NCBI RefSeq assembly: GCF_024298765.1
Contig: NZ_CP101210.1
Source: Escherichia coli
GTDB taxonomy: Bacteria; Pseudomonadota; Gammaproteobacteria; Enterobacterales; Enterobacteriaceae
Strand: one strand, 5' to 3'
Length of the DNA stretch: 64,000 nucleotides
Shown piece by piece: positions 27,997-32,326 of the stretch. Position 1 is the stretch's first letter. Each line of letters opens with the position of its first letter. The position numbers were made by a program, and so were the translations under genes. The notes beneath the pieces are model-generated. The model did not search any database. It was given only the letters and a program-made list of their open reading frames with translations, and had not been told where the DNA came from.

Positions 27997-28034
27997 GCCG
28001 GATAATATAAAAAGTTATCCGGCAAATTATTTTT
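27997..28034. terminator. Hairpin plus T-run between convergent yggM and TRAP permease gene
   Basis: GCCGGATAA-tataaaaag-TTATCCGGC then AAATTATTTTTT. Confidence 0.5.
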
Positions 28035-29335
28035 TACATTAGCCCTAGTAGCTGTGGAATGAACAAGGATATTTGCGGGATGTAAGTGATCATCATCAAC
28101 GCGATTAACAATGCGGCATAAAATGGCAGCAATGGTTTGATCAAATGTTGAATCTTCACACCTGAAATAGAACAACCAACAAATAGCGCACTACCCACCG
28201 GCGGTGTTAACAGCCCAATACAAAGGTTAGCCACCATCATAATACCGAAATGTACCGGATCCATTCCCAGCTCTTGTGCAATCGGCAAGAAGATTGGTGT
28301 GAAGATTAGTACAGCCGGTGTCATGTCCATAAAGATGCCGACAATTAATAAGACGATATTAATCAGCAGCAATATGATCAGTGGGTTATCAGAAATCCCC
28401 ATCAATGCGTCGCTGATCATATAAGGAATATCAGCATTGGTCATTGCCCAGGACATGCCCACGGAAAAACCGATCAACAGTAATACAATCGAAGTGGTAA
28501 CAACCGATTCCAGAATCAGTTTGGGTAAATCGCGCCATTTTACTTCCCGGTAAATCAGCACCGAGAGAATAAATGTGTAGACAACGGCAATTGCTGACGC
28601 TTCAGTTGCGGTAAAAATGCCGCCCAGAATGCCGCCCATTACAATGAACACCAGAAGCAAACTTGGTAAGGCATCCAGAAAAGCTTTACATGCCTGAGCA
28701 AAGGTTGCTCTTTCTGAAAGTGGGTAGCCACGGCGTTTAGCAATAATGCCGCAGACTATCATTACCGCGAGACCCATTAAGATCCCTGGCAAATATCCCG
28801 CCATAAATAACGATGCTACAGAAACGCCGCCAGCTGTCAGGGAAAACACAATTAACACGTTTGAGGGCGGTATCAGTAATCCAGTAATACAAGATGAGAC
28901 GTTTACAGCGGTAGAAAATGCCGGATCATAACCTTCTTTGGTCTGAATGGGATTCAGTGTGCCACCAACGGCAGCAGCTGCCGCAACGGCTGAACCAGAA
29001 ATGGAACCAAACATCATATTCGCCAGGACGTTCACATGACCAAGCGAACCAGGAACGCGGCCAACCATTACCTGGGCGAGGTTAATCAAACGTATCGCAA
29101 TACCGCCGCTGTTCATCAGTGTTCCGGCAAAGATGAAAAAGGGGATTGCCAACAGGGCAAAGTTATCCAGTCCATTAGCCAATCGTTGCGAAACAGTGAT
29201 TGCCGCGATATCCCAGGGAAACATCAACAGCATTGAAGCTACAGTCGCAATAGCGATTGAGAACGAAATGGGCACACCAATAAAGACCAGCACAAAAAAA
29301 CAGTCAAACAGTGTAATCGCGATATAACTATCCAT
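28034..29335 (-). CDS. TRAP transporter large permease subunit (DctM family)
   Basis: 433-aa polytopic membrane protein with DctM-like organisation; stop of upstream gene shares nucleotide 29335. Confidence 0.8.
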   Translation of the reverse strand: MDSYIAITLFDCFFVLVFIGVPISFSIAIATVASMLLMFPWDIAAITVSQRLANGLDNFALLAIPFFIFAGTLMNSGGIAIRLINLAQVMVGRVPGSLGHVNVLANMMFGSISGSAVAAAAAVGGTLNPIQTKEGYDPAFSTAVNVSSCITGLLIPPSNVLIVFSLTAGGVSVASLFMAGYLPGILMGLAVMIVCGIIAKRRGYPLSERATFAQACKAFLDALPSLLLVFIVMGGILGGIFTATEASAIAVVYTFILSVLIYREVKWRDLPKLILESVVTTSIVLLLIGFSVGMSWAMTNADIPYMISDALMGISDNPLIILLLINIVLLIVGIFMDMTPAVLIFTPIFLPIAQELGMDPVHFGIMMVANLCIGLLTPPVGSALFVGCSISGVKIQHLIKPLLPFYAALLIALMMITYIPQISLFIPQLLGLM

Positions 29336-29847
29336 TAACTGGCCTCCTGCGCAGGTTGTTTCAGTTGTTGAATGCTTTGATTAATAAAACACAAGGCATA
29401 AAACATCATCACCACTCCACTTAATGGCAGAATGATATATACGTATCCCATCGGTATTTGCATTGCGGCAGATACCTGTGATGTTGCCAGTGTTTTATCA
29501 ATTAATTTCAGGCCACCAGTCACAATGACCGAACCGGCAAAACCTAAAATAAGAACGTTAATGACTATACTAAGAAGTAATTGCTTGCGCTTATTCAGGG
29601 CGAGAGCAAATAAATCGATAGAGAGATGTCTCTGCGCGCCGACGGTATATGCAGCACCTAATAATCCTACCCAGATCATCAAAAAGCGTGCCAGCTCATC
29701 GGTTAATGTACTTGGCTGGTTAAGTACGTAGCGGCTAAATACTTGCCAGACTACGCATACAACCAGAGCAAGCATTACGGCGACAGAAAACGCGGCAATG
29801 ACGCGGTCTACCGCAAGTTTCAGGCGGTTAAATATCATTGTAAGCAT
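29335..29847 (-). CDS. TRAP transporter small permease subunit (DctQ family)
   Basis: 170-aa protein with four hydrophobic helices, placed between SBP and large permease genes. Confidence 0.7.
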   Translation of the reverse strand: MLTMIFNRLKLAVDRVIAAFSVAVMLALVVCVVWQVFSRYVLNQPSTLTDELARFLMIWVGLLGAAYTVGAQRHLSIDLFALALNKRKQLLLSIVINVLILGFAGSVIVTGGLKLIDKTLATSQVSAAMQIPMGYVYIILPLSGVVMMFYALCFINQSIQQLKQPAQEAS

Positions 29848-29882
29848 CCTGGAAAATCAGGGCCAGAGACTGGCCCGAAATA

Positions 29883-30869
29883 TTATTGAGCAGCGTTGTC
29901 GAATTTCTCTAACAAAGCAGCTTGTTTTGGATCTTTTTTGAAGTCGTCAAACAGAGGTTGAACTGCGGCACGGAATGGGGCTTTATCAACCTTAACGATT
30001 TCACCACCCATAGCTTTCGCCTGAGCACGTGTGTCAGCGTCAATTTTTTCCCACAATTTTTGTTGATAAGCTTCGGATTTCTTCGCCGCTGTTTCGAGGA
30101 TTTGTTGCTGTTCTGGGGTTAATTTATTCCATGTTTTGGTGGAGATAACCAAAAAGTCAGGAATTGAGGCATGTTCATCTTCAGAAAAGACTTTGGCAAT
30201 TTCGATATGTCGAGTCTGCACCCAGGAAGGCACGTTATTTTCTGCGCCATCTACTACACCTTGTTGCATCGCAGTATAAACTTCGCCAAATGAAATTGGA
30301 GTGGGTGAGCCACCCATCAGTTCAATCATTTTGATGGTGGTCGGGCTTGGCTGAACACGAATTTTCAGCCCTTTAAGATCTTCTGGCTTAGTAATCGGTT
30401 TTTTCGCATAGAAACTGCGAGTACCCGCTACATAAGCTGATAAAGCAAAAAAGCCTTTATCTTTTGTTGAATCCATAATTTCTTTACCAACTTCACCAAA
30501 AACCACTTTGTTGAAGTGCGCCTGATCTTTAAATAAGAACGGCAAATTATAGATAGCATAAATATTATCAAAAGACTCCAGATCACTGGCGGAACCTTTG
30601 GTCATATCCAGTGCACCATTTTGCAACAACTCCATAGTTTCTCGCGCATTACCCATCTGGCTGCTGGGGTAAATACGGATCACCATATTACCTTTTGACA
30701 GCTGTTTTACTTCTTTCGCCAGCTCTTCAAAACTCTGATGTACAACATGACTTCTTTCCAGGTTGTGTGCTAACTTTAACGTCACTTTTTCTGCGGCGTT
30801 TACGCCAGTGCTAACCAGAGCCAGCAAGGATGCGCAGACTAATGAGCGGGTAAATGACCTCATTTTCAT
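29883..30869 (-). CDS. TRAP transporter substrate-binding protein (DctP family)
   Basis: 328-aa ORF with signal peptide; DctP-like size and features; first gene of dctPQM-like operon. Confidence 0.8.
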   Translation of the reverse strand: MKMRSFTRSLVCASLLALVSTGVNAAEKVTLKLAHNLERSHVVHQSFEELAKEVKQLSKGNMVIRIYPSSQMGNARETMELLQNGALDMTKGSASDLESFDNIYAIYNLPFLFKDQAHFNKVVFGEVGKEIMDSTKDKGFFALSAYVAGTRSFYAKKPITKPEDLKGLKIRVQPSPTTIKMIELMGGSPTPISFGEVYTAMQQGVVDGAENNVPSWVQTRHIEIAKVFSEDEHASIPDFLVISTKTWNKLTPEQQQILETAAKKSEAYQQKLWEKIDADTRAQAKAMGGEIVKVDKAPFRAAVQPLFDDFKKDPKQAALLEKFDNAAQ

Positions 30870-31136
30870 AAAAAAACTCCCTGTTGAAGAATGGAAATTG
30901 GTTGATATCTAATTGTGCTTATCAGTGCTTTGTGCGACAAATTGGTTAACCTGTCTGACAACTTGTCTATGTTTATCACAACTTGAAATAAAGTCAGAAA
31001 TTAAATATTAATTTTGTGCGCCAGGTTGTACATGTTTATAATCAATAAATGATGAGTAAATATTCACTAAATATATATAATAAATATCGTCGATATTTAT
31101 TCTGTAAGAAATATATTTTTGCCGAAGTTAATTAAC

Positions 31137-31150
31137 GGGGGGGGGGGGGG
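31137..31150. repeat. Homopolymeric G14 tract (C14 on the TRAP-operon coding strand) in AT-rich intergenic region
   Basis: Direct reading: ...ttaacGGGGGGGGGGGGGGtaaaag...; about 270 bp upstream of the TRAP SBP start, 40 bp downstream of the hemW stop. Confidence 0.9.
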
Positions 31151-31189: not shown

Positions 31190-32326
31190 TTACTCAGCGA
31201 GGAATAATTCAAGAAGTGAGTTTAAGAATAATTTACCATGCTCGGTTATCTGCCAGTAATCCGCACATTCTGTGAGATAACCCTGAGCGATGGCCTCGTC
31301 TAACTGAGAGCGAATAACTTCTTCAGAAAGGCCAGTATACTGGCTAAACTCCACGCGCGGCGCGGCCTCCAGCAGACGGAAGCGATTCATAAAGAACTCA
31401 AACGGCTTATCTGCGGCTTCGACATCACGCTGGCTTTCCAGATACCTTCCTTGCATAAAACCACGCGGATGACGCGTTTTGGTGGTACGCAGAATGCGCC
31501 CATCCGGGAAGGTCACTTTGCCGTGCGCGCCGCAGCCAATACCGATGTAGTCGCCAAATCGCCAGTAGTTGAGATTGTGCTGGCACTGATAACCTGGTTT
31601 GGCGTAAGCGGATGTTTCATACTGCTGATAGCCCGCTGCGGTTAATAACTGATGCCCCTGTTCGAAAATATCCCACAGCGCGTCATCGTCCGGCAGTACA
31701 GGAGGGCGCGAGCCAAACAGCGTATTAGGTTCGATGGTCAGTTGATACCAGGAAAGATGCGGCGGATTCAGTTCAATGGCCTGGCGCAGATCGCCAAGCG
31801 CCTCTTCCAGTGATTGATCCGGTAGCCCATGCATCAAATCGAGGTTAAAGCTACGTAACCCTAAACCGCTCGCCAGATTTGCCGCTCGTTTCGCTTCTTG
31901 CGGGCCATGAATGCGCCCAAGTCGTTTCAGCTTTTCTTCGCTAAAACTCTGCACGCCAATGGAGATGCGGTTCACACCAGCACGCTGATAATCAACAAAG
32001 CGATCGGCTTCTACCGTACCAGGGTTCGCTTCCATAGTAATTTCTGCATCCGCTGCCAGCGGCAAACGCGCACGCACGCCGTCCAGCAGCGTTTGCATCG
32101 CCGGGCCGGAAAGCAGGCTCGGCGTACCACCGCCAATAAAGATTGTCTTTACTTCACGGCCCTGAGCGTAAGCCACATCGTTGTCCAGATCGTTAAGCAG
32201 ATGCTGAACATAATCGTCGTGCGGCACTTCTCCTTTCAACGCGTGAGAGTTGAAATCGCAGTACGGGCATTTCTGTACGCACCACGGGATGTGAATGTAG
32301 AGACTCAGCGGCGGTAATTTAACCAT
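31190..32326 (-). CDS. hemW: Heme chaperone HemW (radical SAM family, formerly YggW)
   Basis: 378-aa ORF with CxxxCxxC radical-SAM motif ([10 protein letters not shown]); synteny with rdgB. Confidence 0.85.

Follow-up and report, generated by a model that had tools for sequence, protein, structure and literature searches.

Between hemW and a TRAP transporter operon lies an uninterrupted run of 14 guanines, raising the question whether it is a regulatory switch, the remnant of an insertion, an error of assembly or simply an unstable repeat. The run, G14 on the plus strand, occupies positions 31137-31150 of the window, by which we mean the whole 64-kb stretch of DNA analyzed here, and reads TTAATTAAC-G14-TAAAAGAAGTG with its flanks. 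We describe it as a poly-G (plus strand)/poly-C (minus strand) mononucleotide microsatellite, 14 units long in the window. It is C14 in the sense of both neighboring genes, hemW and the gene for the TRAP binding protein, which lie on the minus strand. A first-pass annotation of this DNA had placed a 14-nt homopolymer at exactly these positions, about 40 bp past the hemW stop and about 270 bp before the TRAP start. The run is there, the next longest G/C run in the window being 7, and the distances are correct: 39 nt separate it from the hemW stop codon (31192-31190) and 267 nt from the ATG of the TRAP binding-protein ORF. The naming of hemW and TRAP also agrees with the RefSeq annotation of the near-identical strain STE15.

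Homopolymers of this length had further been called rare in E. coli, a claim borne out by the run counts, by the expectation for independent bases and by a published survey. G/C runs of 5, 6 and 7 nt number 30, 6 and 1 in the window, and the only longer one is the run of 14. The counts fall about 5-fold per added base over lengths 5-7, and from an extrapolation of this drop we infer about 1e-3 G/C runs of 14 per genome. Under an independent-base model, G/C runs of at least 14 are expected 3e-4 times per 64 kb and 0.03 times per 5 Mb. Among 1346 Escherichia genomes surveyed, G/C tracts of at least 6 averaged 6.2 in length, with a standard deviation of 0.6 (PMC8928963). The length of the G14 run is far above chance from base composition.

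The surroundings of the run are well defined. hemW, encoding a radical SAM haem chaperone, extends from 32326 to 31190 on the minus strand (ORF and RefSeq annotation of STE15). Its intrinsic terminator, located by a terminator scan and as an inverted repeat (31187-31152, minus strand), consists of an 11-bp stem with a 4-nt loop (31187-31162) and the tail CACTTCTTTT (31161-31152). The C-run begins 1 nt beyond this U-rich tail. In the sense of transcription, the order is the hemW stop, the hairpin, CACTTCTTTT, one A, C14, GTTAATTAAC and then the spacer. The spacer, AT-rich and about 100 nt long, gives way to a conserved upstream region of about 160 nt, after which come the SD GGAG and the ATG. 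The terminator hairpin is invariant in E. coli and is found also in Salmonella and Leclercia, whereas the terminator hairpins of Kluyvera and Klebsiella differ from that of E. coli. The AT-rich spacer (31031-31136), delimited by E. coli and cross-genus alignments, is not conserved between genera. Small ORFs of at least 20 aa in the spacer are only short, AT-rich, chance-like frames, and an Rfam search at E<=1 returned only a spurious lncRNA match. The spacer contains a second microsatellite, (TA)n at about 31069-31078, which reads CACTAAATATATATAAT in the window and CACT(AT)3-5AAT in other E. coli; in the alignment, strains differ in length partly because of it. Between the tract and the conserved upstream block, at 31074-31106, lies an almost perfect AT-rich palindrome, TATATAATAAATATCG-t-CGATATTTATTCTGTA.

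That block, the conserved TRAP upstream region (30870-31030, minus strand; cross-genus alignment), is where the promoter and operators presumably lie. It is followed by the TRAP transporter operon (28034-30869, minus strand; ORFs and STE15 RefSeq annotation), whose first gene encodes the DctP-type binding protein (30869-29883), followed by the small permease DctQ (29847 or 29838 to 29335) and the large permease DctM (29335-28034), all on the minus strand. The binding protein is closest to the EFI structures 4ovr, 4n15, 4mhf/4mij and 4x8r (E = 1e-64 to 1e-68), which were reportedly solved with glucuronate or galacturonate bound. The substrate of the operon is probably a hexuronate. A TRAP binding protein of Salmonella, STM3169, binds D-glucuronate (PMC7660916).

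Comparison of tract length across isolates, the check proposed in the first-pass annotation, shows that lengths differ, from 6 to 14 G. Lengths were taken from samples of the 1466 complete E. coli genomes, out of 5426, that have the hemW-TRAP junction, and from metagenome and MAG contigs. The complete genomes that were fetched carry G13, G12, G11, G10, G9, G8, G7 and G6, as well as the interrupted forms G7AG6 and G7TT. The flank occurs in two alleles, Gn-TAAAAGAAG and Gn-AAGAAG. A further 25 contigs (24 from metagenomes and one from a MAG), sampled independently, contain G6 sixteen times, G7 four times, G8 twice, and G9, G10 and G13; three of the 25 runs are interrupted (G6A, G7A and G8AG6). 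G6 is thus the commonest contig form (16/25), and G13 comes from one SPAdes-style metagenome contig. A species-level DNA pattern scan for the junction found only one entry, the misbinned MAG contig JAIJJM010000272.1, which is labelled Collinsella sp. and bears the E. coli hemW-TRAP junction with G8; it is probably a case of binning contamination.

For the 60 complete genomes closest to the window, tract length was deduced from match length and identity. A length difference alone accounts for 57 of the closest genomes, with 13 G in one, 12 in one, 11 in 24 and 10 in 31; three more have 10-11 G together with one SNP and the last two have 9 G. G14 is absent from these 60 genomes and was observed in the window only, which carries the longest allele among the sequences examined. 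Alleles of 9-14 G occur on 411-bp flanks identical to those of the window. Over 18.4 kb, the window differs from STE15 (G13) by 2 SNPs and 1 tract base. Strains that were assembled twice (E166 and 2020N21-246) and clonal pairs have equal tract lengths, which argues against pure assembly noise and also against very rapid switching. Tracts of 10-13 G persist in several lineages.

Two divergent E. coli haplotypes have no homopolymer and carry GGGC(G)ATTTA at the tract site. In the haplotype with GGGCATTTA, the site reads GCGGGCATTTATAAAAGAC (29 genomes, all with the same 405-bp match); in the haplotype with GGGCGATTTA, it reads GCGGGCGATTTATAAAAGAAG (5 genomes, all 406 bp). None of these 34 genomes (34/34) shows length variation at the G3 site. 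The existence of tract-less haplotypes indicates that the run is a derived state within E. coli. Length variation is confined to haplotypes with a run and is greatest where the run is at least 9 long, with six alleles on one haplotype, a pattern that is the signature of replication slippage. The instability of the run is length-dependent. Homopolymers are well known to be unstable through replication slippage, and slippage is presumably the mechanism of length change here as well. The locus is a hypermutable repeat that differs in length between closely related isolates; it lies at a non-coding site, with conserved flanks, variable repeat number and length-dependent instability. All states of a microsatellite were observed: birth, expansion and interruption.

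Does the run lie where it could control the TRAP operon? In the cross-genus alignment, conservation is limited to about 170 bp next to the TRAP ATG. On the minus strand, this block contains motifs shared by five genera: GGCGCACAAAA (31022-31012), a candidate CRP-like site with a TGTGA half-site, TGTGA-N6-TAGACA (30980-30964), TGTCAGACA (30960-30952) and TGTCGCACA (30939-30931); the SD GGAG (30880-30877) is conserved as well. Two TGTC-N-GACA / TGTCATACA boxes in the block (TGTC-N-GACA and TGTC-NN-ACA) have a GntR-type look. The conserved motifs are candidate operators; no regulator gene adjoins the TRAP operon. The promoter scan gave a weak candidate, TTGTCG-17-CACAAT, at 30940-30912 on the minus strand. 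A possible ExuR/UxuR operator, AAATTGGTTAACC at 30939-30951, was suggested by the consensus for these regulators; we rejected it, the motif being unconserved in other genera and the conserved boxes being of the TGTC-N-GACA type.

The tract lies about 100 bp upstream of the distal edge of the conserved block, in a segment that is not alignable between genera; the best promoter candidate near the start codon is about 200 bp away. There is no C/G run at this position in Salmonella, Kluyvera, Klebsiella or Leclercia. On both strands, neither the promoter scan nor a relaxed scan with spacers of 15-19 found a sigma-70-like match of at least 7/12 spanning the tract. A plus-strand pair, TTGCCG-N-TAAAAG, was also considered as a promoter and discarded as a chance match: it has a 17-18-nt spacer only at G5-G6, and is without the invariant final T of the -10 element. 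When read-through RNA was folded with C3 to C16, the same terminator hairpin formed with the same energy, and the C-run was unpaired in every predicted fold. As for the marks of a contingency locus, the tract is intergenic, in neither a reading frame nor a predicted core promoter, and it has not been kept long and uninterrupted across TRAP-bearing lineages. Control of TRAP expression by the tract is unlikely from its position, and unproven. The flank TTTGCCGAAGTTAATTA beside the tract does not vary among divergent E. coli haplotypes, is in part retained in Salmonella, and may mark something functional close by.

We suggest that the tract is probably a neutral or near-neutral microsatellite in the non-conserved spacer after the hemW terminator, and that TRAP is controlled from the block nearer its start codon. 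A short G run would have arisen within E. coli through a small complex mutation of an ancestral GGGC(G)ATTTA. From a sufficient length onward, it would have been expanded and contracted by replication slippage, and in some lineages it would have been interrupted by point mutations. The tract would have no sequence-specific role and would be neutral or nearly so, as its position and lack of conservation suggest, and control of the operon would sit in the conserved block. A quantitative effect of the tract on expression is possible.

Three other explanations were weighed against this one. The exact count of 14 could be an assembly or polishing over-call of a real tract of about 10-13 G. This is compatible with a neutral microsatellite, and we consider it unlikely but not negligible. 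Homopolymer length errors are common in long-read assemblies; no other complete genome of the haplotype compared has 14, the nearest relative having 13 and most others 10 or 11. Strain GF54 (NZ_CP172159.1) shows an implausible G12-AA-C26 at the tract site, which could be a genuine inverted expansion but is more probably an artefact of long-read assembly. However, alleles of 12 and 13 occur in independent assemblies, with G13 also in the SPAdes-style metagenome contig, so that 14 is only one step more, and strains assembled twice match in length. Tracts of 10-13 G are present in about 59 independent complete genomes of the window's haplotype. The first-pass annotation had listed a sequencing or assembly artefact among its readings. 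With G9-G13 in many independent assemblies, a long tract is genuinely present; a one-base error in the assembled length of 14 is possible. The same annotation had offered the remnant of an insertion junction, in which the run would be the scar, a target-site or junction remnant, of a genomic island that brought in TRAP. The TRAP genes are missing from most complete E. coli genomes (1466 of 5426 have them), and their G+C content, about 0.43, is below that of the flanks. These features would suit an island, but other genera tell against it. Loci found through orthologues of the TRAP binding protein, 85-90% identical, in Salmonella enterica, Kluyvera, Klebsiella variicola and Leclercia all have the order yggT-yggU-rdgB-hemW-TRAP(PQM)-yggM or yggN. 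This synteny in four other genera implies an ancestral operon that K-12-type E. coli have since lost. The loss extends to about 73% of E. coli genomes, K-12 and O157:H7 types among them, which have REP-like elements where the operon would be. Homology with TRAP-less strains breaks at or inside the 3' end of hemW, so that the tract falls 40 bp within the variable segment; this segment is not bracketed by direct repeats, neither an integrase nor a tRNA is present, and there are TRAP-positive haplotypes without the run. We regard the scar as highly improbable, and on the evidence of synteny, break position and missing direct repeats the insertion-junction reading is dropped. The local picture is corrected accordingly: the TRAP operon beside hemW is an ancestral feature of Enterobacteriaceae and did not arrive as an island. 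Between TRAP-positive and K-12-type strains, the last ~200 bp of hemW (31190-31390) are 84% identical and the first 900 bp 97%, which points to an old dimorphism or to an import linked to the presence or absence of TRAP. The divergent 3' end still encodes the same C-terminal peptide. On the other side of the TRAP segment, homology with TRAP-less strains reaches the yggM stop. Strain CEA106S (NZ_CP166722.1) shows a further rearrangement of this intergenic site: an IS1A element separates hemW from a truncated yggM, and the annotated hemW has 8 additional codons.

The remaining explanation gives the run a function. The length of the C-run could tune read-through from hemW (yggS-hemW operon) into TRAP, through the efficiency of the intrinsic terminator or through Rho loading, or it could alter the geometry of an upstream activator or nucleoid-protein site; the outcome would be phase-variation-like heterogeneity in hexuronate uptake. 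Poly(C) is a classic Rho ligand. Only 1 nt lies between the terminator tail and the tract, and the C-run is unpaired in all predicted folds. In the best 78-nt stretch of RNA, C exceeds G by 10 at n=3 and by 19 at n=14, the latter value being in the top 0.4% of such stretches across the 64 kb. Tract length is polymorphic in the population, and in the Gn-AAGAAG allele class the run replaces the last TTA of the terminator U tract, which could weaken termination. We nevertheless doubt that the run acts in this way. Short (G6, G7TT) or interrupted alleles are the most frequent, contrary to what one would expect if selection kept the locus mutable, and clonal or re-sequenced pairs are equal in length. 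The run is missing in other genera and in two E. coli haplotypes with an intact TRAP operon, and unlike classical contingency tracts it lies outside any ORF and outside the core promoter candidates. A modest effect of the C-run on hemW read-through is conceivable. The stronger proposal, that E. coli uses a post-terminator poly-C as a heritable, slippage-tunable valve, acting through terminator context or Rho loading to set read-through into, or upstream control of, the hexuronate TRAP operon and so to create population heterogeneity in sugar-acid scavenging, appears to us quite improbable. To our knowledge, E. coli is not known for homopolymer contingency loci. It is chiefly some extra-intestinal, avian and Shiga-toxin-producing lineages of E. 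coli that retain the TRAP operon. The first-pass annotation had suggested a slipped-strand mispairing tract that modulates TRAP expression. The slippage half of this idea is upheld by 6-14 G on otherwise identical flanks and by the invariance of the tract-less haplotypes; the regulatory half is not, since the tract is outside the conserved block, no promoter candidate spans it, and interrupted or short alleles are common.

The practical value of the locus lies at present mainly in its use as a fast-evolving marker: the G:C microsatellite has nine or more length alleles and occurs in about a quarter of E. coli genomes. Assemblers and variant callers are known to have trouble with it. Were the length of the tract to influence read-through or expression, the run would be a rare homopolymer expression switch in E. 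coli, acting on the uptake of a host-derived sugar acid, but none of the present results point to this.

Comparison with known systems helps to place the tract. The operon beside it resembles the hexuronate-type TRAP transporters, such as Salmonella STM3169-3171 (PMC7660916), as a DctP/Q/M system; this likeness concerns the cargo and not the tract. Like rut sites, the C-run is C-rich, G-poor and predicted to be unstructured in RNA just past a stop codon. Unlike them, it is a 14-nt homopolymer rather than a C>G region of 70-80 nt, and it follows an intrinsic terminator that should already release most transcripts. Among promoter homopolymer contingency loci are the poly-C/G tracts of Neisseria meningitidis opc and porA and the poly-C tracts of Bordetella pertussis fim2 and fim3, which sit between the -35 and -10 elements, or between an activator site and the -10 element, so that one-base changes reset promoter strength. 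The hemW-TRAP run shares with them a poly-C/G stretch of about 10-15 upstream of an operon and a change of length by slippage. It differs in lying 267 nt from the ATG with no promoter candidate, in neighboring a nutrient transporter rather than a surface antigen, and in the predominance of short or interrupted alleles.

Closer to the tract are the polymorphic intergenic mononucleotide repeats of E. coli itself, with which it shares a non-coding site, conserved flanks and length differences between strains. Earlier SSR and MNR typing in E. coli was reportedly carried out by Gur-Arie et al. in 2000 and Diamant et al. in 2004. The tract stands apart from the usual E. coli repeats in being G:C and not A:T, in being far above the typical length of 6-7, and in occurring only on the ~27% of genomes that keep TRAP. 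In the Escherichia survey, homopolymer tracts of at least 10 were mostly intergenic, and the ratio of A+T to G+C tracts was 11.6 (PMC8928963). The survey does not name the poly-G locus after hemW, and our literature searches on the hemW-TRAP poly-G locus found no paper. The poly-G run after hemW joins the known polymorphic intergenic homopolymers of E. coli, as a locus previously undescribed in the literature searched.
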